Shown here: positions 1 to 35,700 of the stretch, piece by piece | Layout of the letters: each line of letters starts with the position of its first letter | Numbering within the stretch: the stretch's first letter is position 1 | NCBI GenBank assembly: GCA_963575745.1 | Contig: CAUYUJ010000184.1 | Coordinates: 62,001 to 117,093 of the forward strand | Direction: 5' to 3' | DNA length: 55,093 bases | Origin: Prorocentrum cordatum | Taxonomy: Eukaryota | Made by a program: the position numbers and the translations under genes | The notes under the pieces: model-generated | What the model saw: the letters and a program-made list of their open reading frames with translations, nothing else | Told to the model about the DNA's origin: nothing | Database searches by the model: none

Positions 1-631
1 TCCTCAATCCCTCCGACGAAGACCTCCCAGCAGATGCCTCCTAGCCTCAGGAGTGCCGCCCTGCGGGCCGTGCCGCTCGTGCACTGAATACGGGGTCCGG
101 GGACACACGCACACACACAAGCAGACACAACTCCCAGGATTCTCCAGATTTCCCCCTAATTTCTGGAGCTTCGTCTTCCCCCTCCACTTCCCACATGTGA
201 TTTTTGTTTTCCTGGGACGCGACGCTTCTGTGTGTCTGTGTGTGTTTCCCAGTCCGTGCCCGTGCCGCCCTGCTGGCCTCCCCGGCCCTCCGGGAGGAGC
301 CCGCCGAGGCGCGCGAGGCCAGGGCCGGCCTCGCCCGCGCCAGCAGTGCCCTCGCGCCGCCCCAGGGATTCGCCAGGGCGCCTCTCCGGCGAGCCGCCCG
401 CGCCCGTCGGCGATAGTATTGGCCTCCTCCTCCTCCTCCTCCTCCTCCTCCTCCTCCTCCTCCTTCCTCCTCCCTCCTCCCTCCTCCCTCCTCCCTCCTC
501 CCTCCTCCCTCCTCCCTCCTCTCCTCCTCCTCCCTCCTCCTCCTCCTCCTCCCTCCTCCCTCTCCTCCTCCTCCTCCTCCTCCTCCTCGTCCTCCTCCTC
601 CTCCTCCTCCTCCTCCTCCTCCTCCTCCTCC

Positions 632-686
632 TGCTTCTTCTATTCTCTGTGAGCAAGCTCCTGCTGTCTCCGCAGCTTCTCTGCCC
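632..686 (+). repeat. Split direct repeat A1 (55 bp)
   Basis: TGCTTCTTCTATTCTCTGTGAGCAAG...CTCTGCCC, identical to 10272-10326. Confidence 0.95.
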
Positions 687-723
687 AGGGCGCCCCCCCA
701 TCGGCCGCGCGTGCGGGCGCCTT

Positions 724-1248
724 ATGCAGGCGGTCGTACAAGCGGCTCTCGGGGGCGCTGGGGAGATCTTCTTCAGGGGGCTGCGGGCCGCGCTCTACGA
801 GCGGCTCGTGGCTGCCCCCTTCTCTGTACTCCAGGACCAAGGGCCTCCTGTGCCTGCTTGGTCCATCCAGCAGGCGGACTCGTCTGAGGGCGAGGGGGCT
901 TTCTGCCCCCTCCCCTCGGCGGGTTCTGCCTGCCCCACCGTCTGCCTCGGGCTGGCGGTGGATCTGAGCGGCGGGGTCTCTCCCTGGCTGCTCAGCACGG
1001 TCGTCGCCCTTCTCTGGGCGACGGCCGCGTGCAGCGCCTGCGCAGGCTGCTGCTTCGGGCTGTGGGGCCCGTACGTGGGGCGGAGGCTCAGGGCTTCCGC
1101 CTGGCCGCGCGGTGCTGGTCCTGCTTCGCTGGAGCAGGACCGCCGCGCGGCGCGAGCGCTGGCCTACGGGGTTCCGCCTCGGCCCCGAGCGCTCGAGCGG
1201 GCTGACGCCCAGCATTCGGGCGCCAGCTCCCACAGCAGCGCCCATTGA
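724..1248 (+). CDS. Leader ORF0 of the YR element, 174 aa, one predicted TM segment
   Basis: ATG at 724 inside track ORF 232..1248; hydrophobic PWLLSTVVALLWATAACSACAGCCFGLW; stop TGA overlaps the ORF1 ATG (TGATG 1246-1250). Confidence 0.55.
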   Translation: MQAVVQAALGGAGEIFFRGLRAALYERLVAAPFSVLQDQGPPVPAWSIQQADSSEGEGAFCPLPSAGSACPTVCLGLAVDLSGGVSPWLLSTVVALLWATAACSACAGCCFGLWGPYVGRRLRASAWPRGAGPASLEQDRRAARALAYGVPPRPRALERADAQHSGASSHSSAH

Positions 1249-3188
1249 TGGCTGAGCTGCCACCAGTTGGCGGAGGGCCTCTCTGGCCCGAGCTCTACCC
1301 ATTCGCAGCTCCCACGGCTCGCGACTACGCACGATGGCGCCTAGACGAAGGCGACACCAGCTGGGCAGCTATCCCCCTCGCGTCTCGGGAAGGGGGCATA
1401 CTTCTGGCCCTGCCTGGCGCCTTTCGCTCTTCGGCGGAGCTCGAGGCTGCCGAGGCGGGTGGCTTTACGGGAATGCTAGGCCCTTTTCAGCTGGTGGACA
1501 TCCAGCTCCTGGGTGCCGCTTCACGGCCGCTCGCCACTACCGCATCCGTCCTCGTCATAGATATCGAGGTTGCAGAGCTCGAGCTCGAGTCGCTTTACCC
1601 TCTGGAAGTCGGCGCGGACGCTGGCATCGTTCCCTTCGCCGAGGTGCGCGGCCGCGTCTACTGGCCACATCCTTCGGGGGTTCGGGTGCTTCGCGAGGGC
1701 TACGCACGCTTGCACGGCGCTCCTCCTACCGCAGGGGAAGAGCCGCTCCCAGGGGCCGATCGAGCTACTCTCTATCAATCCGCCGACGAGATGGAGGAGC
1801 CCGAGGGGTTCGCGGCCGATGGGGAAGCCGACCGCACGGTCCCAAGTGCGCGGTCCCCTGCGGACGCTGGAGTCCCACGCGGCCTACCCGCGAAGCGCGC
1901 AGCCACCGCCGTGCCGCCCAGGGTCGCGGGTCCCACTCCGATCGCTCCTGGCGCTCCCGCGGCGTCCCTGGACGACGGGGCCCCTATGACCCGTGCCGAA
2001 GTAGCTGCCGAAATGCGCGCCTTGCTTGCAGCTCACGGGGCCTCCCCGATGGTCGGCGGCCCCGAGCCGCTGGGCTTCGCTCCAGCTGCCCGGGGCGAAC
2101 GGCCCGAGGTGCCCCAACTTTTCAGCGACGAAGCGGTGCGCCTCGGGCTGGATCCTGCGGGGATCGAGGCCGTCCTGTCCCACGCGCCCGTGGCCCCACA
2201 GCGGGTCTCCGCACGTCCCAAGGGCCCGACCTCCGCGCTGGTCGCGGCGTGGGAAAAGGCGCGCTCTCTTGCTGTTCCTCGAGCCCCTACCTCGGGCCTC
2301 GGAACGATGGGTCCCCCGCCGCCACCTGGGCTAGCCCATCCCGCTGTGGCCGACGGCTTTGCCGAGGCGGGCGGCGCCGACGGGTCAGAGCTCCCCCATG
2401 CAGCCAATCAGACGGACTTCAGCCTCATGCTACAGTGTCTGCACCAGTCCCTCCTATTGCAGCAGGGGCGGGGCCATCGGCCCACCGTCCACCCGCTTCT
2501 GGGGACTCTGAGCGACTCTGCTCAATCTCCGCCCACGAGCTCGGGCGATCCCGCGCCCGCGTCGGCCCCGATGGGGGGCATTGCTCGGAGGCGCGAGTGG
2601 CAGCAAGCGCTGATACAGCACGGCCCCGACGTGCGAGGACTGATGAAGGAGAATTTGGCCCGCGTCCTGGGCGTGGAAGTCAGCGCCGTGACCCCCATGG
2701 CCATGCACCAGTATTTTCGGGAGCACAGTCCTTTGGGGGCTCAGCCGACGACGCACGAGTTGTTGACGCATTTCGCCTTCCTCAGCGCCGAGCTGTGGCG
2801 GGCCTGCGAGGAGGGGAACCCCGAGAGAGTCCAGACGCTACTGACGTGTCAGTGCATGTTCATCGACCAGCTGGCGGGGGACCGCGGCTATCTCGAGGCC
2901 GCATGGTTCCTCACGGGGCTGGAGCCTCCCCCGTGTCGCGTGACCAGTCGTCACACGGAGCGCGAGGCCCAGGCCCCGTTCTCCCCCCTGGTGGATCCTC
3001 GCTGGCTATCGGCGCAGGGCGAATATGTAAAGGAGCTGCAAGCATTTCGGGCGCGTCTCGACGCCGAGCGCGCCGTCGCGCTCCCCAAGCATCCGCCTCA
3101 GCAGCCCAAGCAGCCCAAGGTCTCGAAGGCCCCCTTCAAGTCCCAGGGTGCTCCCAAGGCACCGAAGGCTGCGCCCAAGAGGGACTGA
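1248..3188 (+). CDS. ORF1, gag-like protein of the YR retrotransposon
   Basis: 646-aa ORF in gag position; normal composition, structured-looking C-terminal region (FIDQLAGDRGYLEAAWFLTGLEPP...FSPLVDPRWL) and basic tail. Confidence 0.75.
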   Translation: MAELPPVGGGPLWPELYPFAAPTARDYARWRLDEGDTSWAAIPLASREGGILLALPGAFRSSAELEAAEAGGFTGMLGPFQLVDIQLLGAASRPLATTASVLVIDIEVAELELESLYPLEVGADAGIVPFAEVRGRVYWPHPSGVRVLREGYARLHGAPPTAGEEPLPGADRATLYQSADEMEEPEGFAADGEADRTVPSARSPADAGVPRGLPAKRAATAVPPRVAGPTPIAPGAPAASLDDGAPMTRAEVAAEMRALLAAHGASPMVGGPEPLGFAPAARGERPEVPQLFSDEAVRLGLDPAGIEAVLSHAPVAPQRVSARPKGPTSALVAAWEKARSLAVPRAPTSGLGTMGPPPPPGLAHPAVADGFAEAGGADGSELPHAANQTDFSLMLQCLHQSLLLQQGRGHRPTVHPLLGTLSDSAQSPPTSSGDPAPASAPMGGIARRREWQQALIQHGPDVRGLMKENLARVLGVEVSAVTPMAMHQYFREHSPLGAQPTTHELLTHFAFLSAELWRACEEGNPERVQTLLTCQCMFIDQLAGDRGYLEAAWFLTGLEPPPCRVTSRHTEREAQAPFSPLVDPRWLSAQGEYVKELQAFRARLDAERAVALPKHPPQQPKQPKVSKAPFKSQGAPKAPKAAPKRD

Positions 3189-6100
3189 AGGCGCCATCGG
3201 CGCCCGTCTCCTGGAAGGGTAGGCCCTCTCGGGGCCGAGGTACGCCACCGCGCACCGTCGGCACCGACGCTGTTGCGGCTGCTAGGCGCATTTGGGCGCA
3301 GCGAGGGCGTGAGGGTAGGAATGCGCTCTTCCAGCGATGCTGTTGCGGCCCCGCAGGGAGGAGTACGTTCCGCCACCACGCCCTTCGCTCCGCTCCGAAT
3401 CGCCTCTCGGTTCCCTTCGGCCATTTTGGCCGACGCCTGCCTCAGTCGAGCGCGCCCTCCAGAGGGCCTGCTGCCCCTGAGGTCGGGGTCCCTGCTGGTG
3501 CCTGTTCTCTTTCGGGCACCCCTGCTGCTCTTGCCAAAGTCGCGCCATTCGTCGCTGACTTGTCTGCCTTGCTGCGCCTGTTTCCAGGCGCGAACATTGA
3601 TATCACCCACTGGGCGGCTGCGTTGTCCCAGGTCGGGATGGGTGCTCGATGTTCTCTTGGTTCTTTCTCCCGCTCATCTATGCGTGCAATGGATAGGGAC
3701 GACCCGTACCTTTTGGGGCCGTTTCCCCGCGATCCTTGGCCGTGCCCGCCTGCTCCATCTCTTGGTCCCCCGCCTGACGGCTTGTCGGCGAGGCGCAGGG
3801 AGCGCTGGAGAGTGCGGCGCGCGGCGCGGACGCTCGCGCAGTATTCTGTTATTGCGCTGAACTGGCTCACCTTGGGTCATCCTAGCCTCGCTCCCGCCGA
3901 GGCTCGCGTCCGCGCCACGGTCTCGCCCTGCCAGGATGGCGTCCGCACCCGTATAGAACGGTTGTGTCGGATCGCAGTTCGCCTCGCCCGTGGCGGCAAG
4001 AGCGACTTAGGTCGAGCCTTCGCTAAGTTCGACTCCACTGAGGTCTCGCTCCATGGCCTGGCCACCCATGTTGCAGCTTTGGAGGCCTCCTTCACTTCTT
4101 CCTCTTCCGTACCCGCCCCCATGCGGCACTGCCCGACCAGCGCCCCTCCTGTGCCTGGTTCGTTGGCGTCTGCGGCGGCCTGGGACTCCACCCAAGCCGA
4201 GCCCTTCGATTTGAAAGTCAGGGCGTCTCGCATCAAGTGGGATTATTCACCTGAGTTTGATCCCGTTCCATTCCTCTCCGACGCTCGAGTCCGCGAAGCT
4301 TTCATTGATCCTGAGGTGATGCGGCTACCGGCGTCAGAGTGGCCTGCTGGCCAAAAGGGGGCGCGCGTCCACATGGACCGCGCCGAGCTGTGGGCCCTGC
4401 TCCAGAAGTGGGATGCTTGCGGCGCCCTGTACCTGACTCCTGCTTCGGACCTCGCTTGGGATGAAGCCTGTGGAGCTTTCAGGGTGCCGAAGGACAGCGA
4501 TTTCGACAGACTGATCTTGAACCCAACGGTCGTGAACAGCCGCTGTGCCTCAATTTCGTCCAGCACCCAGCGCCTTGGCCAGGGTTTTCTGCTTTGCCGT
4601 TTGGGGCTGGCACCTGGGGAATGGCTGGCAGTTTCTTGTGACGACCTACGGGAGTTCTACTACACCTTCCGCGTCCCTCCCGCGCGCGCCAGGCGCAACG
4701 CCCTGCGCGTTCGTCTGCCATCCTCTCGCTTCAAGGCCTTTCGAGCCTGGCGCCCTGAGCTTGAGGGCGTGGACGTCGCGCCCTGCCTCAATGCTCTGGC
4801 GATGGGCGACAACATGGCTGTGGAGATTGCCAACTCTGCGCATGAAGGCGTCTTGCACAGCTTCGGGGCTTTGCGGCCTCACGAGCAGGTTGTCCACCGC
4901 TCGCCGTTCCCGCGGGGCCCGTTTGTCGAGATGCTAAATATTGATGACCACACAGGTTTTCAGAAGCTCTCGTGGCGTGGCTCCGCTCCTCGCCCCGACG
5001 ACCCGCGTCGCCGTGATCGCGAGGTCTTCGCCGCCTGTGATGCGGGCTACCCGCGCGTGGGCCTGATACAGCATCCAGGCAAGCGCGCGCGGGGCGAAAC
5101 GCACAAGGTTGTGGTGGGCGCCGAGGTGGAGGGGCGCATAGGCATCGTCTGCGCTCCTCTCGTGCGGACGGTGGCCTTGTGCAGGCTCACCCTGATCCAG
5201 ATCTACCTCGGGATCACCACACGCTCCCTGCTTGCCTCTCTTGTGGGCTGCTGGGTCCAGGTCTTTCTCTATCGCCGCCCGATGCTCGCCATCTTTACGC
5301 ACGTCTACAACTTCCTGTCGCGCCTTGCGACCGAGGAGGGTATCGAATACGACCTGCCCCCTTATGTTCGCGACGAGCTACTGGCCTGCACCTTCTTAGC
5401 CTTTACGGCTATCACCGACCTTCGGGCGCAGCCTTGCCCCGAAGTGTTCGGTACGGACGCGTCCCTCGGCTGGGGGGGCGTTGTCCGCGCTCCTATCAGC
5501 CCGCAGCTCTCCGCCGAGCTGTGGCGCAGGTCGGAGCACGGGGGGTGGCATACGATTCTGCACAATCGGAGCCTCCTCGCCGTAGTCAGCCGCGGCGTGC
5601 CTCTGGGCCCTGAGCTCACCCAGCTGCACCACGACCTGGGGCTCCCGTCTATTGAGCCCCCCGTCGCGCCGCGATGGGTCACCGAGCTATCAGAGGCGCT
5701 GCGCTTTCGGCTCGCGTACAAATGGGAGTTCCGCATGCCTCGCCACATTAATATCTTGGAGACGACAGTGTATAAGAGTTTGTGCAAATACTGTTGTGTT
5801 CGCCTCCCTGACTCTCGTATCCCCGTGCTCCTGGATTCAAAAGTGGCTTTGGGCGCGACAGCGCACGGGCGCAGCAGCTCTCCTGGGTTATCTCATGTTC
5901 TCTCGACCACTTTGCCCTATGTGATAGGAGGAGGTTTATATATGGGTGGCATGTACGTGCCGACAGACGTGCACAGGGCCGACGACCCCACGCGCAACCG
6001 TGCGGTGAGGCCCCCGTCCCGTGACCCTCCCGCCTGGTTAGTGGAAGCAGAGAGAGGAGAATTTACCCGGTTTGATTGCATCGCATACGCCGATTCCCGC

Positions 6101-9100
6101 TCGTCATTCCCTACTTGCCTCTGGGGCCGATTTGTTGCGCAGCTTGTGGCTCGAGGCCCCGAGGGGTGGCTCAGCCACCGTTGGGCGGCCGCCCCCCCCC
6201 TCCTGCTGGGTGAAGGGATGGCCGCCGACGCCTCCGGCGACGGCGCCCAGGGCGAAGCTCTCGACCCCTCGGGCGCCGCCGAGAGCAGCCGCGAAGCTGC
6301 TCTCGCCAGCGGAGAGCGTCGCGGGCCTCGCAACGCACTCTTCGCTGACAGCGAACGGCCTATCCCGTCCGCGACCGACGCCACGCCCAAAGCGTCTGCG
6401 GCCTCGGAGGCCGGCTCGCACGGGCCCGACCCTGCCGCTGCGAGCGCAGGCTCGGCTCCCCCGGCCGTCAAGCGTGCTCCGCCCCTGGCCCTCCGATCCA
6501 AGGCCGTGGCGGCCCCTCCGCCTGCCATCGGGGTGGGCTCGTCGCGCGACGGCCCGCGGGCAGCACCAAAGGGGGCCACTGCTGCTACCCCCCGCGTCTT
6601 CCAGCGCGCGGCCAGGGTGAGCGCTTCTCGCCAACTACTTGGCGTCGTGGACGGGGCCTCGCGCAGCACCATCGAAGCCGCCTTCAGGCGCCAGTCCCTG
6701 GTCTACCATCCAGACAGGGCTCCTGCGCACCTGGGGGCCGAGGAGCGCGCAGCCCGCGCGCTCAAGTGGAAGCAGCTCTGTGACGCCAAGTCAGTGCTGC
6801 TCCAGGCCCTTTCACAGGCCGCCGCGCCGCCTGTTGATTCTAGCACAGGCGGTGACGGCCCTGCCGCCCGCGCCTACGCCAAGGCAAAGGCGGCAGGGAA
6901 GGGCGCCCGTAAGGGCAAGCTGGCTCCTGGGTCGTTCATGGCCCTTCAGGCGCTCGAGGAAGCTGTCGAGGACCAGCCCAATCGTGGTGGTCACGCACCG
7001 ACCTCCGCCTCGCGCACGGGCGCCGCACACAACAAGCGCGCCAAGAAGCAGCGGCGTGCTTCCACGGCGGCGCTCCCCGCTCCTGAGGGGGCCACCACGA
7101 CGCCTGGCCGCAGGGCGCGTCGCACTGCTAATGCGCGCCGCTGGGCAGGCGCGGCAGGCCCTAGCTCCGCGGCGGGAGTGGGCCCTCCACCGCGGAGCCG
7201 CAGCCCTGCCCGCAGCCGTACGCGGTCTCCAAACCCGTACGGGACTGATCATACCTCTCCCTCGGGAGGCGGCTCTCCGCCTCCCGCCGACGGCTCTATC
7301 TCGTCTGAGGAGCCGTCGGGGCCGCCAGCGGGGGAGGCCCCAGAGGGCCCGCACACTCCTGAGGGTTCTCCGCCCGCGCGCGCTCGCAGCCGCTCGAGAG
7401 CAGAGCCCGCGTGCGCTGAGGACTCCCCGACGGAGCTCGAGGACGTCGTGCTGAGTGCCCTCGCTGACTCCTCGGTGGACCTTGAGCGCGTCGTGGCGGG
7501 CCTGAACCCCGAGGTCCTCCTCCGCTTGCAGGCGGCCTTCCCTCGCCGCGCGGAGGCCTCGCCGCCCGCCGCTCACCCCGCGGCTCGCAGCCGCTCTCGG
7601 GGCCGTGGCACTCGTGCAGGCTCCGAGACACCGCAGCCTGTCCCGCCGCCGCCGCCACCACCACGCCACCACACTGGTGAGCGGGGGGCGTCGCGCTCCC
7701 GCGCGGCGGCCGCAGGCCAGGGGCTTAGTCGAGCGGGCGCGCGCGGCTCCTCGCGTGCGCCTTCTCGTCAGGCGATGTCGCCTGGGCGTCGCAAGGTGCG
7801 CTCCCCTCGCGTCGCTCCGAAGCGTCGCCCGAGCCCGACCGCATCGCAGCAGCCTGCCACTCCTCACCAAGCTGCGAGCTCGGGCGCCGCCCTCGCAGGC
7901 AGCTCCCGCACGGGCTCCGCTGCTCAGGCCCCTCCGACTTCGGTAGGCATGCGCTCTTCCAGCGATGCTGGTGCGGCCCCGCAGGGAGGAGGGCGTGCCG
8001 CCGAAGAAGGGGGGTCTTCGAGCGGCCCCGCGCTTGGCCGAGCTCCAGAGCCCGAGCTGCCTCCCAGCGGCTCTCACAGCGGTGACGCTGGAAGCGCCGC
8101 GGCTGCAGCCTTCGCAGCGCGACGCACGGCCTCTGCGGCCACAGAGCAGCCCTTGCCTCCAGGGGCCGCCAGCGCCCTTGCGTGGCGCCTCAACATCGGC
8201 GGTGAGAAGATCACAGTGGTGAGGTGGGGACCCGCCTGGCAAGCCGCCTTCCAGAGCGCGGCGTCGTGGCTGAGGTCCTTCGCCCCTGCAGGGGCCGCCG
8301 AGCCCGAGGGCAAGGAGGACCTGCACTGCCTCCTGCGGGCCTTGCACGCCTACAAGCGCCTGTTTCAGACGGGCGGCGCCGAGCCGATTGATGAGGCCTC
8401 ATGGATGCATCCTTACGTGGCCGTCGTCGAGCCTGAGGCTATCCCCGCGCATGCTGACCTCCAAGCCATGGGGGCGGGCGCCATCCGTGGCATCGGGCTC
8501 GGCTCCAAGATCGAGCAGCGACGGCGCGCGGGCAAACTGGCCTGCCTCTTCGACATGCTGTACCACGTGCAGGACAGTCACGGCACCATCCCCGCAGCGC
8601 TGTGGGGAGACCATTCCCCCCCGTCCGAGATCCTCGACGCCTTCGCGGAGGTGGTGCCCGTTCCTCATCATTCGGGCCTCACGTCCTCGGCAGCTCGCTC
8701 CGAGCTTGCCGAAGCAGCCGCAGCAGCGCGTGCCGAGCCGCGCCCGCCTTTTGACTGGGCGACCCTCGAGGGAGGGGACGCTCTGCCTGCCGAGATCGAA
8801 GCAGGAGCTCGCCGTGCCTACCGTAACATGGGTGGCTCCTTCAGCTCGGCGCGGGCAATGTTGGCGGAGGCGTCGGGGTTCGAGACCGACGGGCGGGACG
8901 CCCGCGTTCCGCCCTTCTACGCGTCCAGGCGCAGGAGGGCCGCCACGCTGATCAGCTCTCCAAGCCCTGGCCGCCCCGCGCTCCCTCCTGTGGTGCGTCT
9001 GCGGCCTCTGCACTCTCTCTGGGCGCGATTCTCACCGCAGGCCACGGGCTTAGTCGGGCTGCGCCGCCACGCCCGCTCGCCCCCCGCGCACTCCCTTTGT

Positions 9101-9154
9101 GCGCGATTCTCACCTCACTCCCGCGTATCTCGACCGTCGCTCGAGATCGATTGA
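1334..9154 (+). CDS. ORF2/pol: reverse transcriptase + RNase H + J-domain + C-terminal extension
   Basis: RT motifs AFRVPKD..RLILNP, DDLREFYY, LAMGDNMAVE, NIDD (4937-4948). DIRS-type RNase H: GTDAS, HINILE, LLDSKV, GRSSS, RADDPTR (~5441-5995). J-domain 6620-6802. True start uncertain. Confidence 0.88.
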   Translation: MAPRRRRHQLGSYPPRVSGRGHTSGPAWRLSLFGGARGCRGGWLYGNARPFSAGGHPAPGCRFTAARHYRIRPRHRYRGCRARARVALPSGSRRGRWHRSLRRGARPRLLATSFGGSGASRGLRTLARRSSYRRGRAAPRGRSSYSLSIRRRDGGARGVRGRWGSRPHGPKCAVPCGRWSPTRPTREARSHRRAAQGRGSHSDRSWRSRGVPGRRGPYDPCRSSCRNARLACSSRGLPDGRRPRAAGLRSSCPGRTARGAPTFQRRSGAPRAGSCGDRGRPVPRARGPTAGLRTSQGPDLRAGRGVGKGALSCCSSSPYLGPRNDGSPAATWASPSRCGRRLCRGGRRRRVRAPPCSQSDGLQPHATVSAPVPPIAAGAGPSAHRPPASGDSERLCSISAHELGRSRARVGPDGGHCSEARVAASADTARPRRARTDEGEFGPRPGRGSQRRDPHGHAPVFSGAQSFGGSADDARVVDAFRLPQRRAVAGLRGGEPRESPDATDVSVHVHRPAGGGPRLSRGRMVPHGAGASPVSRDQSSHGARGPGPVLPPGGSSLAIGAGRICKGAASISGASRRRARRRAPQASASAAQAAQGLEGPLQVPGCSQGTEGCAQEGLKAPSAPVSWKGRPSRGRGTPPRTVGTDAVAAARRIWAQRGREGRNALFQRCCCGPAGRSTFRHHALRSAPNRLSVPFGHFGRRLPQSSAPSRGPAAPEVGVPAGACSLSGTPAALAKVAPFVADLSALLRLFPGANIDITHWAAALSQVGMGARCSLGSFSRSSMRAMDRDDPYLLGPFPRDPWPCPPAPSLGPPPDGLSARRRERWRVRRAARTLAQYSVIALNWLTLGHPSLAPAEARVRATVSPCQDGVRTRIERLCRIAVRLARGGKSDLGRAFAKFDSTEVSLHGLATHVAALEASFTSSSSVPAPMRHCPTSAPPVPGSLASAAAWDSTQAEPFDLKVRASRIKWDYSPEFDPVPFLSDARVREAFIDPEVMRLPASEWPAGQKGARVHMDRAELWALLQKWDACGALYLTPASDLAWDEACGAFRVPKDSDFDRLILNPTVVNSRCASISSSTQRLGQGFLLCRLGLAPGEWLAVSCDDLREFYYTFRVPPARARRNALRVRLPSSRFKAFRAWRPELEGVDVAPCLNALAMGDNMAVEIANSAHEGVLHSFGALRPHEQVVHRSPFPRGPFVEMLNIDDHTGFQKLSWRGSAPRPDDPRRRDREVFAACDAGYPRVGLIQHPGKRARGETHKVVVGAEVEGRIGIVCAPLVRTVALCRLTLIQIYLGITTRSLLASLVGCWVQVFLYRRPMLAIFTHVYNFLSRLATEEGIEYDLPPYVRDELLACTFLAFTAITDLRAQPCPEVFGTDASLGWGGVVRAPISPQLSAELWRRSEHGGWHTILHNRSLLAVVSRGVPLGPELTQLHHDLGLPSIEPPVAPRWVTELSEALRFRLAYKWEFRMPRHINILETTVYKSLCKYCCVRLPDSRIPVLLDSKVALGATAHGRSSSPGLSHVLSTTLPYVIGGGLYMGGMYVPTDVHRADDPTRNRAVRPPSRDPPAWLVEAERGEFTRFDCIAYADSRSSFPTCLWGRFVAQLVARGPEGWLSHRWAAAPPLLLGEGMAADASGDGAQGEALDPSGAAESSREAALASGERRGPRNALFADSERPIPSATDATPKASAASEAGSHGPDPAAASAGSAPPAVKRAPPLALRSKAVAAPPPAIGVGSSRDGPRAAPKGATAATPRVFQRAARVSASRQLLGVVDGASRSTIEAAFRRQSLVYHPDRAPAHLGAEERAARALKWKQLCDAKSVLLQALSQAAAPPVDSSTGGDGPAARAYAKAKAAGKGARKGKLAPGSFMALQALEEAVEDQPNRGGHAPTSASRTGAAHNKRAKKQRRASTAALPAPEGATTTPGRRARRTANARRWAGAAGPSSAAGVGPPPRSRSPARSRTRSPNPYGTDHTSPSGGGSPPPADGSISSEEPSGPPAGEAPEGPHTPEGSPPARARSRSRAEPACAEDSPTELEDVVLSALADSSVDLERVVAGLNPEVLLRLQAAFPRRAEASPPAAHPAARSRSRGRGTRAGSETPQPVPPPPPPPRHHTGERGASRSRAAAAGQGLSRAGARGSSRAPSRQAMSPGRRKVRSPRVAPKRRPSPTASQQPATPHQAASSGAALAGSSRTGSAAQAPPTSVGMRSSSDAGAAPQGGGRAAEEGGSSSGPALGRAPEPELPPSGSHSGDAGSAAAAAFAARRTASAATEQPLPPGAASALAWRLNIGGEKITVVRWGPAWQAAFQSAASWLRSFAPAGAAEPEGKEDLHCLLRALHAYKRLFQTGGAEPIDEASWMHPYVAVVEPEAIPAHADLQAMGAGAIRGIGLGSKIEQRRRAGKLACLFDMLYHVQDSHGTIPAALWGDHSPPSEILDAFAEVVPVPHHSGLTSSAARSELAEAAAAARAEPRPPFDWATLEGGDALPAEIEAGARRAYRNMGGSFSSARAMLAEASGFETDGRDARVPPFYASRRRRAATLISSPSPGRPALPPVVRLRPLHSLWARFSPQATGLVGLRRHARSPPAHSLCARFSPHSRVSRPSLEID
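6620..6802 (+). other. DnaJ/J-domain within pol
   Basis: LLGVVDGASRSTIEAAFRRQSLVYHPDR...KWKQLCDAKSVL fits the J-domain consensus (LGv...as..eIk.AyR.l...yHPD...f..i..Ay.vL); HPD at 6707-6715. Confidence 0.85.
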
Positions 9155-10103
9155 TGCCTTCGAGCTGTGGTTAGCTGAACACACTGGCGTGCCACCCGCC
9201 ACACTTTACAAAAGCGGGATACTTCTCGCCCGCTTCCTCGCCACCTTCGGCGTGTGGCTTCATGATGCAGGCTTCCCTCATTATATCCTGGTCCATGCCA
9301 TCTTGGGAATCCAAAGCGCCCATCCGCATTGGAAGGCTTTCCTGACAGAAGCTTGGGACGTAGCGAAGCAATGGAAGCTCGCGGAGCCGCCAAAGCTCCG
9401 TCCCCCCTTGCCACGCGCGCTGCTTCGCGCCATGGTGGGGCTCTGTCTAGCCTGGGACTGGCCTGTGATGGCGGCACTGCTGCTCATGGGCTTTACGATG
9501 TTCCTCAGGCCGGGCGAACTGCTGGCGTCACGCCGCTGTGACTTGTCGCTCCCATGCGACCGTCTCGAAGTTGAAGGGGATGCTTTTCTTTCGATTCTTG
9601 TTCCAAAGACCAGAAGAACGTATCCGACGCAACATGCTCGCTGCTCTGATCGGGGCACGGTGAAGATATTGAATCAAGTGTTTGGGAGGCTAGCTTCCAC
9701 CGATCCTCTCGCCCCCTTCGGCGCGAGCGGCTTCCGTACTCGGTGGAATCATCTGCTTTTGGCTCTGGGCGTCCCTCTTGCCCAAGCCGGTCAGGGGCTC
9801 AACCTGACGCCCGCTTGTCTGCGGGGCTCTGGCGCTACGGACTTCTATATCGCTACAGAAGACGCCCCTCGCGTCTTCTGGCGAGGACGTTGGCGTCAAG
9901 CTTCCAGCGCCGAGCGCTATCTGCAAGCCGCCGCAGCCTCCACAGTCCTTGCTGCGCTGCCCGAGCATGCACGGGCTCGTATCTTGTTCTTCGCCACCGC
10001 CAGCGACCGCCTTGTCGCTTCGTTTCTCCAAGTCGGCCCCGCCGCTTGGCCTGCCCTGCTTGCGGCCGCCCGCCAAAACCTTGTCACTTCGCAAGGTCCT
10101 TGA
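9054..10103 (+). CDS. Tyrosine recombinase (YR)
   Basis: FLRPGE (R), PKT (K), PACLRGSGAT (xxxR), RGRW, ERYLQ (Y). Frame opens after TAG 9051-9053, overlaps the ORF2 end and has no early ATG. Confidence 0.9.
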   Translation, partial: SGCAATPARPPRTPFVRDSHLTPAYLDRRSRSIDAFELWLAEHTGVPPATLYKSGILLARFLATFGVWLHDAGFPHYILVHAILGIQSAHPHWKAFLTEAWDVAKQWKLAEPPKLRPPLPRALLRAMVGLCLAWDWPVMAALLLMGFTMFLRPGELLASRRCDLSLPCDRLEVEGDAFLSILVPKTRRTYPTQHARCSDRGTVKILNQVFGRLASTDPLAPFGASGFRTRWNHLLLALGVPLAQAGQGLNLTPACLRGSGATDFYIATEDAPRVFWRGRWRQASSAERYLQAAAASTVLAALPEHARARILFFATASDRLVASFLQVGPAAWPALLAAARQNLVTSQGP

Positions 10104-10114
10104 GCACGGGTATG

Positions 10115-10518
10115 GCTGCCTCGCCGACCTCGGCGACCAGACGGACTCCACCGTCTGACGCGCGGCGCCCCGGCTTGAGCGCGCGGGACGGGCCTGCCCA
10201 TTTTGGGCCGCCCCGCGCGCGCACGCCGCGGCCGCGCTCGGAGACAGCTCGCTGGCGCGCGAGCGGGAGAATGCTTCTTCTATTCTCTGTGAGCAAGCTC
10301 CTGCTGTCTCCGCAGCTTCTCTGCCCCCCTCCCTCCTCTCCCATTCTAAGGCTGACGGGCGCTGCCTCGCCGACCTCGGCGACCAGACGGACTCCACCGT
10401 CTGACGCGCGGCGCCCCGGCTTGAGCGCGCGGGACGGGCCTGCCCATTTTGGGCCGCCCCGCGCGCGCACGCCGCGGCCGCGCTCGGAGACAGCTCGCTG
10501 GCGCGCGAGCGGGAGAAT
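10115..10518 (+). repeat. 3' terminal B1-A2-spacer-B2 repeat block
   Basis: 158-bp B copies at 10115-10272 and 10361-10518 flank A2 (10272-10326). Confidence 0.95.
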
Positions 10519-10674
10519 CCTTCTCCTCCTCCTCCTCCTCCTCCTCCTCCTCGTCCCCCCCCCGCGTTGCCCTCGTCCTCGCCTCCTCGGCCTCGCGCGC
10601 CGGGCCCCGGGCGCAGGGATTCACGAGGGCGCCTCCCCGGCGAGCCGCCCGCGCCCGTCGGCGGTAGGTGTTCG

Positions 10675-11456: not shown

Positions 11457-11641
11457 CAGTCAACCCGCGGAGTGAGGATGAGCAGCTTGTCCTAGGTTAC
11501 CCTTGCCTCCTTGCCCCCCTCGGTCCATCCCTGGCAACTTTCGCTGGCCAGCCCCTTAGTGTACCCTCTTCGAAAAACGTCAACATGGCTTTCCAAGGCC
11601 CTTGCATCCTTATCGTGCATCCTTACTCTGCGGGTTGACTG
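11457..11641. mobile_element. Tc1/mariner-type MITE (TA TSD, CAGTC termini)
   Basis: TA-CAGTCAACCCGCGGAGTGAGGATG ... CATCCTTACTCTGCGGGTTGACTG-TA, 24-bp TIR with 2 mismatches. Confidence 0.75.
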
Positions 11642-12948
11642 TAGAGCTGTGCCCCAAGATTGATGCTCTCGTCGAGTCGTGCGTAGAATATTCGCAGCTC
11701 TGCGAGAATTCTACGCACGTCTCGTGTCTCGACGAGCAAGTCAAGCCAGGGGCAAGCCGATTCTGCGGTCGATCCCCTAAGTCGAGAATGTGCCGATGTC
11801 GAGCGCTCCGCGGAAGCCGCGAGCGTTCCGAGGGCCAGCGCGCACGCCACGGCGGCGAGCAGAGGGCGGTGGCGCAACAGGGGCGTGGGCTCCCAAACAG
11901 GCGGGGGGGGACCTCCGTGGAGGCTCCTGGAGGCTCCCGGAGGGAGGCCTCGTAGAGGATCGACGAGGAAACCTCCGACGCTCCGCGCGGCTTTCGCGGG
12001 TCTGCGCCAGAGCGCCCTGGCGGCGCCCCGCGCCGGAGGAGGGGATCCGCCGCAGATCCAAGACATCCGAGAGGAGGAGGAGGAGGCGGAGGAGGAGGAG
12101 GAGGAGACGGAGGAGGAGGAGGCGGAGGAGGCGGAGGAGGCGGAGGAGGAGGAGGCGGAGGAGGCGGAGGAGGCGGAGGAGGAGGCGGAGGAGGAGGCGG
12201 AGGAGGAGGAGGCGGAGGAGGAGGAGGAGGAGGAGGAGCCGGGATGCCGGACCCCCCTCGGCGGATAGTGACAACGTTGCGACGGGATCGTGTTGGCCAT
12301 CTCTCGGCCTCTGGGGGCCCTCGCCAGGCCGCCAGTGGCGACAGACCGGTCGCCCCGGATCGTCGTCTCGAGGAGGCGCCCGATGTTGCCGGACGCCCCG
12401 CGTGCCCGGCGCCCCCGGGCACGGGGGGTGCAGCGGATCGCCGCTCTCTCGGCCCTCGACGCCGTCTTGCAGCGACGACCGGGAGGTGTGGAACGACGGG
12501 CGGGGGAAGTACAAGGGGTGCGGCTACCGCTACCCCCTGAGGAGCGAGCAGGACCAATCAGCACAGGGCAGAGGCTTCCCACGGTTCGCGCAGAGTTGTT
12601 GGGTCGGCGCTGGATCCCCCTCCCTGGCGCGCGGAGCGCGCCCGGGGCGGCGCCCGGGGCGGCCGCCTCTGGGGGGTCCAGCGCCGATCCAAGGCACCCG
12701 CGCGGAGCTCGGAAAGCTGTCGTGTCTGTGCAGCCTCCAGCTGCCCTTCGAGGAGCAAGCTGCTGGAGGACTCCCAGACGCTGACGGCGAAGCTGCTGAG
12801 CCCCCTGATCCAGCAGGAGCTGCGGCGGCTCGAGGAGTCCCGCTGGCTCGGCACGCCCAGCCGCGGCCTCGGAAGCACGGAGCCGGAGCTGCTCAAGGGC
12901 CAGGCCGCCTCGCAGCCATCGGAGAAGACAAGACGGCACAAGCATATA

Positions 12949-13676
12949 CAGTCGGGGCGTTGACCTAAGGAACCCTAAATAAGGAACGAGGCCCCCTTTT
13001 CCCATAATCTAACCTTCGACTTGCAACCAAAAACTTCAGGAAAACATTGGGCAAGGTGTGAAACAATCAAGGAACACCGAGCCCCTCCCCAACGAAAAGG
13101 GTTCCTTCTTCAGGGCCCCGGCTGTAGGCCTTCGGAGCTCCATGCGGACCTCCCGGATCGGCGCTGGAGCCCCTCGCGGGCGCGCGGAGCGAGCCAGGGG
13201 GGGGCGGCGGCGGGGGCGCCATCTATTGGCAGCGCGCACAAGGGGGTGGGGGAGGGGGGAAGGCTTCTTAGAAGAAGCAGGGGTGCTTCTAAGAAGCCTT
13301 CCCCCCTCCCCCTACCCCCTTCTGCGCGTGGCCAGATCTACGCAGATTTTCGGATCTCCTCCAGATTTCTGGGAGCGGCACTGCACCCCCCGGTGGCGCC
13401 TCCGGCGCCGCCCCTGGCGCGCTCCGCGCTCCAGGGAGAGGGCTCCAGCGACGACCCAGGAAGTCTGAGGGGAGGTTCATGGCTTGCGGGGTGGGACGAC
13501 ATACAGTCGGGGAAGAAGGAACCCTTTTCGTTGGGGAGGGGCTCCGTGCTCCTCGATTGCTTCACAGTTTGCCCCAGGTTTCCCTTATGTTCTCGATCGG
13601 AACTCGAAGTTTAGCTTATCGAAAAAAAAGGGGCCTCGTTCCTTATTTAGGGTTCCTTAGGTCAACGCCCCGACTG
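12949..13676. mobile_element. Foldback/composite MITE: two inverted ~175-bp CAGTCGGGG-ended units around a palindromic spacer
   Basis: ~47-bp perfect outer IR CAGTCGGGGCGTTGACCTAAGGAACCCTAAATAAGGAACGAGGCCCC with TA flanks; units 12949-13124 and 13504-13676; central hairpin ~13250-13311. Confidence 0.75.
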
Positions 13677-30391: not shown

Positions 30392-31705
30392 ATGCGTCGT
30401 GGAGAAAACAGCACCGATGGGCAAACACATGGCCCATATTGGGACCCTCAAGGTAATGTGCCTTTTCGTGAGTAATCTACGAGGTCAACGCATGGCTCAA
30501 CGTTACAAGCGGACGTATGACGCCACAGGCCCAAGCGGCCGCAATACAACGCGGCCTGGGTGGCCTAGCGAGGACACTCGCCATGAGGGTACCGGCTGAC
30601 ATTATAAACTATGGTGCTGACATCGATGGGGTCCACACAGACCCAGTGACCTACATCATGTTTCTCCTAAGCATGAAGTTCGAACGCCTGGAAGATGAGC
30701 GACAGCTCAATTCCGGCACACAACTCATCGACTTCCACGTGCCTCACGGGGAACGAATCGATGTCACCCTTACCCGATTCGAAATGGCCCGGCTTGAGGC
30801 ACAATCGGTGGGATTCGACCTTCCCAACTTCCAACTGCTAACCACTATCTTATTCCGCGCCTTAGGCGTCGGCAACCAGCGAGCCACGCAACTCTTACAG
30901 CCACTCAATCACCAAATGCCCCGAACACAACAACAGTATGATGAGTTGCTGGAGAGGATGCGTTCGATAGGCCACCTATCCGAACGGTCTCCTGGTAACA
31001 TAGGATCTGTGTTTGGAAGGGGAAGGGGATCTGGTAGTGGAAATTTCTACACTACCTTGACTACTGAAGCCCAGCCTGGAAACGGGCCCTCAAGCATATG
31101 GGCCGATGACCCAGGAGAATCCACTGCGTTATTAGCAGGGGATCGATCACAACCAAGCTGGGCAACCAGCCCTCCTTCTAGAGAACCACAACCACACCGT
31201 TCTTTATGGGGGGAATCAAACCCCCTAACCGACGGTGTATCCACCTACTTGGGAGACGAGGATTTCGACTCCGGCACCGATACAGACACTATATCATCAG
31301 ATGGTGTTGAAGCTTTAGATTGGTCAGATATTATGAATATGGATAACGACAATCAGCGTGCTGAGCATTTATTCTGGTTATTACAACAGGCTAAACGAAG
31401 GTGGAGGAGGTTCACACGAAAACCAGTGCGTCGTGTTAGAAGGAGGATACGTAGAAGTTTTAAAGGAAAGGGTAAAGGTAAGCGAGGTCGTCGGAGGTTG
31501 AACGGACGAGGTATCGCGGCATTTCTCCAGAGGCTCTCAGATGAACAACATGATGAGATATTCTTTGGGGGAAAAGGCCGTAGTACGGGCCGTGGAGAGA
31601 CCTCAGGAAAAAGGCAAAGGAAGGCGGGGAAACCCGCGAGGTAGAGACGGCCAGGTTCTCAAATGCCATGAATGTGGTAGTTCCGATCATCTTGTGCGAG
31701 ATTGT
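30392..31705 (+). pseudogene. gag with CCHC zinc knuckle, frameshifted
   Basis: PYWDPQGNVPFRE / IYEVNAWLNVT..QAAAIQRGLGGLAR can be rejoined across a 1-nt loss at ~30475; second frameshift ~31590-31640; CHECGSSDHLVRDC at 31664-31705. Confidence 0.8.
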
Positions 31706-32792
31706 CCAGTGAAGGGAAATGGAAAGGGCAGGTCGACGGAAGTCCATTTTGGCTCAAGTGAACCATCCATTGAGTATCTGAGCCTCCAGGACTTTGAGGC
31801 TATGGAGCAGATATTTTTCACTTGGGTTGTTGGCATGGACAACGTCGACGAGCTCGAGGGGTATGGTCATGGATTGTACGCGTACTACCTCGAGTACGTC
31901 CGCCGGTTCGTTACGGGCAGTAACGAGCTCACTCCCGTGGAACACGGTACGCTGGGAAACCACCCTCTTCTTTTCTTCGACTGGATGTTCGGGAACCCAG
32001 GCAACATCATGGCCTACGAGAGTGACGACGAGGACACCACTATAGAGGCTTCGCCTTCCGAGGTTCAACGGAACCTCGAACCTCCGCCTGAAATCCCGCC
32101 TGGAAACAGGCCGTCTTTGATGGGAGAATATCCCCAGACCACTGAAGACTTAATTGAAATGGAGTCTCAGGCATTTGTTCGGGCCTTCATTGCAGGCGGA
32201 CCAGATACTCTGTTCATACCTCCTGGTTCGCTTGCTCCAGGCGAATATGGACCGCGCACCCTTTTGCAGACCCTCATGAGGATGCATGAGATACTTGTTA
32301 CTGGTTATCCTGAGAGTCAATAACATATCGAAGCTGACATTATGACAGAACAGGATACTGATGCTTGCGGTAGCTCAGAGCTGTTGTTGGCAGCTCTGAC
32401 TCTCATTGACAGCGTGCATCCTCAGGACGTGCAGAGACGCTTGATATGCTCCCGTGGTAGATGGCGTAATGCTCTAGAAATGGCTATTGCTATGCGCGGT
32501 CATGATCTTCCTCCGCCAGGATGGGGTCTCCAGGCGGTGGGAATGAGGCCAAACCATACGGCCATGCGCAACATTGCTGGGCAGCCTGTGCTCGGCAACG
32601 AGCCTGAGCCGACAACAGTGCCTCCTACACCGGGACAGCCGAGCGACGCACAGACGCCGGCTATGCAGGGAAACCTGCCTGTATCAGATACGCCAATGGC
32701 CATCATCATTGGTAGTTCGACATCAGAAGAAGTAGAAGGCGATGGTTGCGGGTTAGATGAGGATGACGTCACCATCCTCATGATGGACGTGA

Positions 32793-35700
32793 AATGGTGA
32801 GGAAGAGGTTGACTTCGATCCTGATGAGTCTGAATCATCATCACCATCGGCACACGCGCCATTTGCGCCGAGCTCCACCCAGCAGGGAGACCTGCCTCCA
32901 TCGGACGATCCATCTGGGATCGCACAGGAGCCTCCTCAGGCACCTCCACCGGGTGCCGCTCCTGCTGCTTCGGCAGCTTCCTCTGATGAGAACACCAGAA
33001 GATCTCGTCCCCATACGCGCGTCAGAGAAGAGCCACATCCACAGGCTCGACTTCCTCGTGAGTGGAGGCAGGCTGGCCCAAAAGAACACGCTCTCAGGAG
33101 AGGTGGCCAGCTACTTCCGCACAACGACCCAAGACGCCGAAAAGGGGAACACTCGGCCTTCGGCAAGGGCAACCCTGCCTATAGGGACAGTGATGGCAAG
33201 GCCATCCGCGGAGGCTATCAGCTTGCAACAAATATCCGCCGCCCTGAATTTCAAGAAGCGCGGACTCAGTTGCGAGATATTATCGCGGCGCGCAAGCAGT
33301 ATAGGCCTCACGCAGCATGCGGACCTTGTTCCCAGCCGTTCCAGAACCACGGGCCAGGATGCCCCGTTGGCAACAACGAAGGCCTGAGCCCCAACAGGGG
33401 CAAAACCCCTCATAAAGAGGGCCATCCGCAACTTATCCCGATGACACAAGAAGAGATTGCAGAAGTGAATCGTCGTCTCTGGATCTTGAGCCACTTGGAT
33501 CCGAAAGAAGAAGAAAAGCCTACCCCGGTTCCAAGGGGACTGGTAGCCATGACCCAGGAAGAGAAAGACGCGCTCTTCAGTCTTCCTAGTATGCGAGGAA
33601 ACTCGCCTGGCGTCTCTAGCCAGTCCCAACAACCAGAACCGACAATCAAGGATGAGGAAAAGGCTCAACGTGTGGCGGAGGACGAGGAGCGTATGCGGAC
33701 AGCAGAAGACCGCACTCGCGAGGCAACTCGCAAGATGTTGGAGGATTCTAGTAAGATCTACATGAAGAGGGCTACGAGGCCCCCACTCCCACTAACTTCG
33801 AAGGCCAAGAGTGGACCCCCGACACCTAAGCCGTCCTCGGTGCCGAAACCGAAGACGAGCCCTCAGGACCCTGGGCCAGACGTGCAGATGGAGGTGCCTC
33901 GAACTGAAACTCCGAGGCCGCCGATTGGCGCAACTCCTACACAAGCGTCTGTGCCCAAGCAGCAACCTCAGGACCCTATGGAGGAACGAAGACGCCCGCC
34001 TAGTCGCAGCAGTTCCATTGCGAAAAGGGCGGCAGCTTTCGAGCGCAGTGGGTATGCACCTGCGCCAGCTTCGCCTGTGGCGGCTCGTTCCAGGAGGTCC
34101 GATGAAGGTGCTATGTCGAGGGGTACCTGGGTGCCGAAGATCAGGGGCAGCGCCAGTCGCGCATCTCCGCGGGGAAACCCGCCAGGCGCTGCCGCCGCAG
34201 CTTCCTCCTCTTCTGGAGCCGCAGCCTCTTCAGCAACAGAGGTTCCGATGCGGGGAAACCCGCCAGTGGTTCAGCTGCACCACCCAGGTGACACGTCCTT
34301 CACTAGTGGGACTCCAAATGTGATCAGGGATAGACTTGCGCTTCGGAAGCTCCCACCGATACGCTCGGTGGATGAGACATTCATGAAGGAATGCAGGAAA
34401 GCTGGAATCCTTCCCACATCCAATGATATTCTCAAACAGCTGAGCAAAGCTCTCAGCAGGATATGCAGACATGCGCCAGACAAGCAACACAATCCTGTGT
34501 GGCGCTTGGAATCTTTCGATGATCATGATGGTTGGGTTAACCTAGTGGAACTCGTGGACCGTTATCCGTGGAACACAGGTCAATCAAGACACGCTGGGTA
34601 TAATCCAAGATATGACGAGGCCAAGATCATCAACGAGCATCTATGTAGGCGCTCGGTTGACCAACTAGCAGCCATCATGATGGCAGTTGTTCATGTCCGT
34701 GAACCAGACGGAGAAGAAAAACAGCGCCTACAGTTCAAGGTGTTGATGCGGGACTCCGGAGAGCCCGCTATCTTCGTCCGCGCCTCTCAGGGGCATTCAT
34801 GGGAATTGAAAGCTCCATGGTCGCTGTACAGCTACATTGTGCTGTGCGACCAACCTGCCGGGAGACCGGCCCCATACCCCGATGTTGCTATGCATGGCAC
34901 TCGATGGCACGCCTTCGAAGGGATTATGTGGCACGGCCTGTCCTGTAGACCTGAGCATAACACGAAGAAAAAGGGGACAGGCCGGTCGCGCATTCACTTC
35001 GTGCCGACAGTTCGCCGCCGTGCCGTGAACAGTGGGTGGGACCCAGACTCAGACATCATCATCTTCGTAGATTGGCGTGAGGCCATACAAGATGGTATGA
35101 AGTTCTGTTGGTCCGATAACGGAGTCCTCTTGTCCGAGGGAGATAACGGTATCATTGAACCATATTACATCTCTCATGTAGAGGACCTGTCCACAGGAAG
35201 GCAATGGCGTAATCCAGAGTATCTGGGGAGCCGCCATGCGCGAGTCTCTGTCGCAACGATGTCTGCTCCTGACAGGTGGGCTGAAGTTGGTACTTCCAGC
35301 GTTAAGTACCAGTGGTCCCGAGACCAAGGGGGCGTTGACCCCCCTATGGGCTACCTCCACAGGGAAGTTGGGGACCACTACAGCCCTACCCAGCTGGGAA
35401 ACCAGCCTGAGATCCATCGGATCTTCATGATTACCGAGAGTGAGGCCGGGAGCGCGGCTCCAAGCCGTGCCCCAAGCCAAGGGCCTAGTGCCGTGTCTTG
35501 GCAGGCCATCAGTACCTCGGACCTGGATCAGATCGCAGCCGCGCTGAACCCTGACCAGGTAGAACAGCTGGCGGACAGGTTATACCAGCAGGATCCCTGG
35601 GCCGCAGGCCAGGGAGCAATGTCCGCTATGGCTGCGAGAAATCGTCAGGCCATGCAGGGAAACCTGCCTACAAGCGGACCTGCTCGGTTTGAACCAATGC

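Follow-up and report, generated by a model that had tools for sequence, protein, structure and literature searches.

The SymbioDIRS retrotransposons of Symbiodinium have their coding region set within split direct repeats in the order A-coding-B-A-B, according to the passages of de Mendoza et al. 2018 (PMC5890265) drawn on here. J domains have been reported in the polyproteins of 11 RNA-virus families (Kitrinoviricota and Pisuviricota), with a proposed role in polyprotein folding, processing or assembly, in the portion of Neri et al. (bioRxiv 10.1101/2022.02.15.480533) that was consulted, and the same portion cites polyomavirus large T antigen, whose N-terminal J-domain uses host Hsc70. The present analysis concerns a 55,093-nucleotide (nt) stretch of Prorocentrum cordatum DNA (contig CAUYUJ010000184.1, positions 62,001 to 117,093), here called the window, to which all positions refer. 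Within it, ~632-10524 is a young, nearly complete copy (~9.9 kb) of a tyrosine-recombinase-type retrotransposon of DIRS order, which by sequence likeness would be placed in a divergent dinoflagellate lineage akin to SymbioDIRS, and whose Pol polyprotein contains a J-domain (Table 1).

That 6620-6802 encodes a bona fide J-domain, recognised as such in a preliminary description made from the sequence, is confirmed. The translation of 6560-6860 matches PF00226 (DnaJ) over residues 26-81 with E 3.5e-8 and 33.9 bits, the gathering cut-off being 27.8 bits; this score was obtained on the 100-amino-acid (aa) segment, and it drops to 27.1 bits (E 4.4e-6), just below the cut-off, when the whole 2606-aa open reading frame (ORF) is scored. 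A phmmer search of PDB sequences gave 41 distinct chains at E<=1, all of them J-domain proteins by name. The top match was human Hsp40 (1hdj, E 4.4e-5), in alignment with which helix II and the His-Pro-Asp (HPD) motif match residue for residue over Y/F-R-R-Q-x-L-x-Y-H-P-D. The HPD, encoded cat-cca-gac at 6707-6715, is intact, as had also been stated. In an AlphaFold2 model of 6590-6850, built with 9 aligned sequences (predicted local distance difference test score, pLDDT, 86.8), helices occupy residues 2-17, 25-39 and 50-78, and the HPD (residues 40-42) lies between the second and the third. Every match listed in a Foldseek comparison of this model with the PDB contains a J-domain, with probabilities of 0.89-1.00 and query TM-scores (TMq) of 0.45-0.64.

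The J-domain is translated as part of Pol and sits inside the A and B repeats of the element. It follows the RNase H-like domain in frame by ~160 codons, in an unbroken ORF (P0001, 1334-9154), as the preliminary description had it. The fusion to a tyrosine recombinase (YR) element that was also claimed stands for the reverse transcriptase (RT)-like and RNase H-like blocks, which share the frame of the J-domain, but not for the YR, which lies in frame +1, outside the ORF. The first ~760 codons of ORF 1334-9154 are a wrong frame over an ORF in the gag position (ORF1). Here, 1334-3188 is truly frame +1, because guanine-plus-cytosine (GC) content by codon position fits ORF 1245-3188. In frame 0, GC of coding type by codon position begins at ~3734, and tblastn matches to relatives begin at 3833. 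ORF1 has no Pfam match and is weakly similar by tblastn to the N-terminal parts of P0008 and P0009. Wrong frames frequently remain open in this GC-rich DNA (GC 52-73% across the window and 63-73% in the first 14 kb).

The J-domain and its surroundings recur in other proteins. When 1.84 billion representatives were searched exhaustively by HMMER with the translation of 6560-9151, 21 proteins came back at E<=0.001, and the relatives tile 5066-9460 of the window. A further homologue search yielded P0022 only. Two relatives, P0010 and P0013, run from RNase H into the J-domain and are cut at the first J helix. P0011, with RNase H, and P0024, with the J-domain, each come from a 4205-nt contig, probably the same one, and hence are probably linked. 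P0013 is named as a Pyramimonas record in EukProt and its last 20 residues are identical to P. cordatum models, suggesting possible contamination. P0028 and P0030 are Prorocentrum cordatum gene models with near-identical J segments. In both, a 33-aa piece of ORF1 (window 2946-3044; 29/33 identical, ORF1 residues 568-600 against P0028 residues 224-256) directly precedes a J-like piece (6569-6835), which suggests that these gene models were assembled from fragments of this family. The flanks of the two models are unrelated, with a cold-shock domain (CSD) in one and a phosphatase-named protein in the other. The joins are either a deletion derivative, a spliced form, or transposable element fragments swept into gene models; for the ORF1-to-J splice that they suggest, no obvious donor or acceptor is present at the matching window positions.

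Wrong frames do stay open here, as frame 0 does over 1334-3188, and P0028 and P0030 place the J-like piece beside a CSD and in a phosphatase-named model; both facts could be taken to mean that the J-domain is foreign to the element, through an assembly error, a nested insertion or a chance open frame in GC-rich DNA. Such an origin is highly improbable and already largely refuted by the Pfam match and the confident model, by the repetition of the order RNase H-linker-J in P0010, P0013 and probably P0011 with P0024, and by the tiling of relatives across the region. Moreover, the ORF1 piece that precedes the J-like piece in P0028 and P0030 identifies those models as built from pieces of the family.

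Recruitment of a chaperone by the element, as proposed in the preliminary description, is plausible. The reading favoured here, with a probability of roughly 0.55, is that the J-domain acts in cis, bringing host Hsp70 to the very Pol polyprotein in which it is embedded. The HPD loop and the basic helix II would bind cytosolic Hsp70 of the host and set off the hydrolysis of ATP, upon which Hsp70 would clamp onto the Pol polyprotein that bears the J-domain. Possible benefits would be the folding of a protein of >2000 residues without a protease, the loading of RT onto RNA, or the disassembly of a recombinase complex. A role of this kind has been proposed for the J-domains of RNA-virus polyproteins, and it is reminiscent of the chaperone dependence of hepadnaviral RT. 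Both Hsp70 binding and any gain for transposition are conclusions that we infer.

Comparison of the relatives bears on whether the domain is maintained. The HPD position is covered by six relatives and reads HPD in 4/6 (P0022, P0024, P0027 and P0032), and PF00226 is matched at E<0.01 in 5/5 relatives with the full domain (25.7, 27.9, 17.3, 19.7 and 19.9 bits). The J core is identical to that of relatives at 49/68, 34/66, 39/68 and 33/62 positions, and the preceding linker at 41/122 (P0010), 53/120 (P0013) and 47/111 (P0024). Across five sequences of 44-48% identity, 22 J-core positions are invariant. These include Pro-Asp within the HPD, Phe-Arg-Arg in helix II and nine consecutive residues in helix III, a pattern that fits a presumed selection for the J fold and for the surface that faces Hsp70. 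The family is multi-copy: four runs, drawn from four studies, contributed 152, 127, 88 and 1608 contigs that lie on 5600-9200 with 80-100% likeness. Among the 40 differing places listed, of ~440, one falls in the J-domain (6637 A>G), on our reading at a synonymous third position. A pattern scan for the DNA of the relatives gave 288 matches in metagenome contigs and 109 in viral contigs, with 0 confirmed in either set. One diverged contig (n=1) joins 5997 to 7941.

Several observations weigh against a maintained, Hsp70-recruiting domain. The preliminary description had treated the lack of a significant PF00226 match, or a domain private to this copy or decaying in relatives, as speaking against its proposal. 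The proposal withstands this check, the PF00226 match being significant and the domain recurring, but the His of the HPD is lost in 2/6 relatives (P0028 and P0030, which read Arg-Pro-Asp, RPD). Four of the five full-domain relatives fall under the Pfam cut-off, which only P0024 (27.9 bits) passes. Helix IV is absent from the AlphaFold2 model, and the Foldseek E-values are weak, from 0.02 upwards, with 0/428 matches at E<=0.001. Conservation of the J core falls far short of that of RNase H (34/66 vs 136/159), a contrast that would lie within a single copy if P0011 and P0024 belong to the same one, and it only modestly exceeds that of the linker. Many relatives are decayed or deleted copies from short contigs, so that retention of the domain partly reflects shared ancestry. 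In addition, the recombinase of the window copy itself is out of frame and behind a TAG.

Much of this would be expected if the J-domain were a passenger under weak or no selection. On this view, an ancestor of the subfamily picked up part of a host J-protein gene along with everything else in the 2.9-kb region; the piece has no role in transposition and still resembles a J-domain only because it was acquired fairly recently. The faster divergence of the J core than of RNase H, the relatives under the Pfam cut-off, the RPD variants and the missing helix IV are all consistent with this main rival, and P0002 and P0003 transpose without the region, their RNase H and YR being only ~80 aa apart. 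It is a serious but less likely account, since sequences of only 44-48% identity share the HPD and 22 further invariant positions and the frame is open through the whole accessory region in a young copy. At the average J-core rate, the HPD would be kept in all four HPD-bearing relatives ~0.3% of the time; this rough estimate of our own assumes independent copies and therefore makes the case look too strong. Furthermore, no close host donor was found among the 1.84 billion representatives, in which the best J-proteins outside the family match at E ~4e-4.

The subfamily appears, from comparison of the sequences, to have gained an accessory region of ~2.9 kb between RNase H and recombinase that Symbiodinium-type relatives do not have. 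In order, this region comprises a linker, the J-domain, two basic patches, an Arg/Ser-rich low-complexity stretch and a conserved module of ~300 aa, all of it translated within Pol. The second of the patches, which is also conserved and 3' of the J-domain, is Lys/Arg-rich. Together with the Arg-Ser repeats, the patches suggest nuclear targeting or import, or nucleic-acid contact. The low-complexity region is partly conserved, with P0037 38% identical over 7208-8047. The C-terminal module (8096-8985) has a clear coding GC pattern and several short near-invariant motifs; its fold prediction is poor (pLDDT 47.9), and it has no Pfam match and no usable ESM Atlas match.

The J-domain of large T antigen acts on host Rb-family complexes. 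A functional J-domain in the present element could likewise serve a client other than Pol, driving Hsp70-dependent remodelling of host complexes or, with the basic patches, nuclear import or particle uncoating. The Lys/Gly-rich and Lys/Arg-rich patches directly 3' of the J-domain in the window, P0024, P0027, P0033 and P0036, the Arg-Ser repeats that come after them and the large T antigen precedent (as cited in the portion of bioRxiv 10.1101/2022.02.15.480533 consulted) are compatible with such a role. No partner domain was identified and the C-terminal module has no recognisable fold, and we consider this alternative improbable, although the present data do not separate it from folding of Pol in cis. 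With recruitment of Hsp70 in cis to Pol as the preferred reading, it may further be speculated, although we hold this doubtful, that the lineage encodes its own Hsp70 co-chaperone, with the Hsp70 pool of the host directly limiting and tuning its reverse transcription or integration. Heat stress, a link also raised in the preliminary description, or proteotoxic stress would then be coupled to its mobility in dinoflagellates that form blooms.

The RT, RNase H and recombinase assignments are putative, drawn from homology and motifs, and are unrecognised by Pfam. A word-indexed search with residues 1000-1850 gave eight relatives at E<=0.001, three of them named Symbiodinium proteins, and tblastn of relatives on the window delimited three shared blocks (3833-5605, 5645-6145 and 9075-10037). 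The window proteins are 26-47% identical to relatives P0002-P0009 (Symbiodinium and others). In the RT-like block, K, D and DD positions are invariant across seven sequences, and these we take to be RT motifs. The RNase H-like domain is identical to P0010 at 135/159 positions and to P0011 at 136/159; its invariant acidic positions fit a D-E-D-D pattern, presumably the RNase H tetrad, and it has no Pfam match. The RT-like and RNase H-like blocks together have ESM Atlas neighbours scoring 0.97, in clusters where 24% and 10% of the members carry RVT_1. Searches with the RT-like block found nothing in Pfam, NCBIfam or PDB profiles, and an hhalign comparison of the RT alignment with the RT of the window's own Copia-like element gave a probability of 0.06%. 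A phmmer search of the PDB with RT and RNase H together returned only a Tel1 row, and a 10-sequence profile against the PDB returned one row at E 0.08; both were judged spurious. The failed profile searches agree with the report that RTs of SymbioDIRS-type elements do not fit Pfam models (PMC5890265, in the passages used).

The recombinase-like region is homologous to the C-terminal domains of P0002-P0009, and is 40% identical to P0002 residues 1140-1437 (E 1e-49). By our reading, it retains Arg, Lys, Arg, Trp and Tyr positions. It matches the PHROG integrase family phrog_1 weakly (E 0.056), as does P0003 (E 0.12), and has no match in Pfam, NCBIfam or PDB profile searches. In Pfam searches, neither the whole ORF nor any of 17 pieces in frame with it or adjoining it matched an RVT, RNase H or integrase family, and these searches detected neither a DDE integrase nor a protease in the ORFs of the element. 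In keeping with the preliminary description, the element has the split direct repeats and the recombinase-like C-terminal domain of DIRS-order elements, but its RT, RNase H and YR all go uncalled by the Pfam, NCBIfam and PDB profiles.

In this copy, the recombinase ORF opens behind a TAG (9051-9053), and no ATG lies ahead of its catalytic core. At the C-run (8983-8985), the contigs of all four runs are one base shorter, and they contain further small indels up to 9066; in the X2/X3 contig the indels total +2, which by our arithmetic would bring the recombinase in frame with Pol. P0021, P0023, P0038 and P0034 read through the Pol-recombinase junction. The intact junction in relatives, together with the base missing in all four runs, indicates that the window copy is slightly damaged or mis-assembled at a homopolymer.

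Split direct repeats in the order A1-coding-B1-A2-B2 are present, as in DIRS-order elements of the PAT-like and SymbioDIRS type, and the near-perfect identity within both repeat pairs indicates a recent insertion. A (CCT)n tract at 423-632 lies directly 5' of A1, and the insertion was apparently into this tract. Tracts of (CCT)n type border the element on both sides (423-632 and 10518-10556), and a 54-nt direct repeat, 93% identical, is found farther out (363-416 vs 10614-10667). The flanking repeats suggest either insertion into a microsatellite inside another repeat, or termini longer than those assigned. No second copy of the element is present in the rest of the window. When 5600-9200 is compared with the contigs of runs X1-X4, places with T or A in the window and C or G in the others predominate (T>C 67-73 and A>G 57-67 places per run, vs C>T 51-56 and G>A 19-24), which would fit C-to-T decay in the window copy.

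Table 1. Features of the element and extents of aligned relatives, in window positions
Feature	Position	Strand	Remarks
Terminal repeat A1	632..686	+	55/55 identical to A2
ORF1, gag position, 647 aa	1245..3188	+	frame +1 relative to the long ORF
Unbroken ORF of 2606 codons (P0001)	1334..9154	+	homology to relatives from ~3.6-3.8 kb
Stable hairpin, copy 1	3302..3387	+	RNA fold -53.3 kcal/mol, z -6.38; 61-nt core 3314-3374
RT-like domain, divergent, DIRS-type	3833..5605	+	43% identity to P0002 over 595 aa, E 3e-126
RNase H-like domain	5645..6145	+	45% identical to P0002 residues 893-1059
Ala/Pro/Gly-rich linker	6146..6619	+	by composition
J-domain	6620..6823	+	Pfam envelope 6635-6802; HPD 6707-6715; modelled helix III ends 6823
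Ala/Pro/Ser/Gly/Arg-rich low-complexity region with Arg-Ser repeats	6824..8095	+	by composition
Conserved Lys/Gly-rich basic patch just 3' of the J-domain	6872..6919	+	shared with P0024, P0027, P0033, P0036
Stable hairpin, copy 2	7930..8015	+	RNA fold -60.7 kcal/mol, z -6.55; 61-nt core 7942-8002
Conserved ~300-aa C-terminal module	8096..8985	+	10 relatives, 29-67% identity
C-run with one extra base	8983..8985	+	1-nt insertion vs contigs of all 4 runs; shifts frame before the recombinase
Tyrosine-recombinase-like ORF	9054..10103	+	frame +1; homology 9075-10037
Terminal repeat B1	10115..10278	+	163/164 (99.4%) identical to B2
Terminal repeat A2	10272..10326	+	identical to A1
Terminal repeat B2	10361..10524	+	pairs with B1; then (TCC)n at 10518-10556
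P0010, aligned	5066-6646		continuous; ends at first J helix
P0013, aligned	5942-6643		ends at first J helix
P0024, aligned	6227-8002
P0022, aligned	6416-7144		then jumps to 9683; internally deleted copy
P0037, aligned	7208-8047
P0021, aligned	8468-9127
P0034, aligned	8615-9460

Two stable hairpins of ~80 nt are predicted in the element, with cores (3314-3374 and 7942-8002) that are 92% identical; the minus strands have z about -3, and the outer stem is built from different flanking letters at each site. Contig depth over 7899-8019 is 3-7 times that of neighbouring bins, with loose ends at 7942 and 8002, indicating that the 61-nt unit is high-copy and occurs in other contexts. Rfam at gathering score found nothing in the whole window, hairpins included. 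Elsewhere in the window, a second retroelement, Copia-like, occupies 30517-45075 (+), with a zinc knuckle at 31541-32323. Its 1767-aa ORF (33270-38573) contains a Tpt1/KptA RNA 2'-phosphotransferase domain (PF01885, E 5e-22) and a RING finger, and its 1893-aa ORF (39394-45075) matches RVT_2 at 26.4 bits, below the cut-off; the Tpt1/KptA domain looks unusual for a retrotransposon ORF. A 460-aa ORF on the minus strand (11623-13005) adjoins a (GAG)n tract and matches the SPX domain weakly, at E 0.0016 and with a score of 19 bits that falls under the cut-off.

The element resembles SymbioDIRS and SymbioDIRS-Dnmt3 in having a divergent RT-like domain missed by Pfam, a putative RNase H, a putative tyrosine recombinase and A-coding-B-A-B repeats, and resembles SymbioDIRS-Dnmt3 in having taken a host-type domain into Pol, as far as these elements are set out in the passages of PMC5890265 used here. 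The cytosine methyltransferase inside Pol that distinguishes SymbioDIRS-Dnmt3 is absent from Pol of the window element. Unlike SymbioDIRS, the element has a 2.9-kb region after RNase H that includes the J-domain, whereas the gap between RNase H and recombinase in P0002 is ~80 residues. P0002 and P0003 carry, between RT and RNase H, an insert of ~290 aa that bears a GPPC motif, and the element does not; residues 611-892 of P0002 and 739-1010 of P0003 have no window counterpart, the RT/RNase H gap being ~40 nt (5605-5645). This insert of P0002 and P0003 has no Pfam match, and in P0006 a GPPC insert of ~290 aa follows RNase H. An NPGP motif, without a Pfam match, stands just before the recombinase in P0002, P0003 and P0006, and we take it to be 2A-like. 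No NPG motif occurs in any + frame of 601-10600.

The J-domain is not a standard DIRS/Ngaro domain, as the preliminary description correctly held, and what is new here is a DIRS-like element with a newly seen accessory J-domain. A full-text literature search, supplements excepted, found no description of a retrotransposon-encoded J-domain; the DnaJ passages of PMC9004415, PMC9940879 and PMC9998398 are incidental, and PMC10449503 does not mention DnaJ. Fragments of the element in gene models, as in two P. cordatum proteins, can inflate chaperone-gene counts, and if this holds more widely, some dinoflagellate 'DnaJ-domain genes' may be fragments of this element family.

Compared with cellular class B/C J-proteins such as human DNAJB1/Hsp40 (1hdj), the helix II-HPD-helix III core is shared. 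Unlike DNAJB1, the element has no Gly/Phe (G/F) region, zinc finger or canonical C-terminal client-binding domains in Pfam searches of its ORFs, and its J-domain has a longer helix III and no helix IV in the model. Retrotransposons and reverse-transcribing viruses are known to borrow host chaperones. Hepadnaviral RT is activated by Hsp90, Hsp70 and Hsp40, and its RNA binding and priming depend on Hsp70/Hsp40; it borrows host Hsp40 in trans, whereas the window element would carry a J-domain in cis. If so, the element, having the domain that activates Hsp70 built into its polymerase, would offer a direct and testable example of chaperone supply under the control of a mobile element, in parallel with the J-domains of polyomavirus T antigens and some RNA-virus polyproteins. 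Large T antigen is likewise a replication protein with an HPD J-domain of its own, encoded by a mobile genome, but its J-domain is N-terminal in a DNA-virus helicase and the present one is internal, between RNase H and recombinase. The RNA-virus polyproteins (bioRxiv 10.1101/2022.02.15.480533, in the portion consulted) offer a parallel in that a selfish replicon there, too, has a J-domain within its replicase or polyprotein; those viruses use an RNA-dependent RNA polymerase (RdRP), whereas the carrier here is a reverse-transcribing genomic element that integrates by recombinase. The locus extends the Symbiodinium picture, in which the same element lineage acquired DNA methyltransferases (PMC5890265, in the passages used), and dinoflagellate DIRS-like elements appear unusually open to the uptake of host domains.

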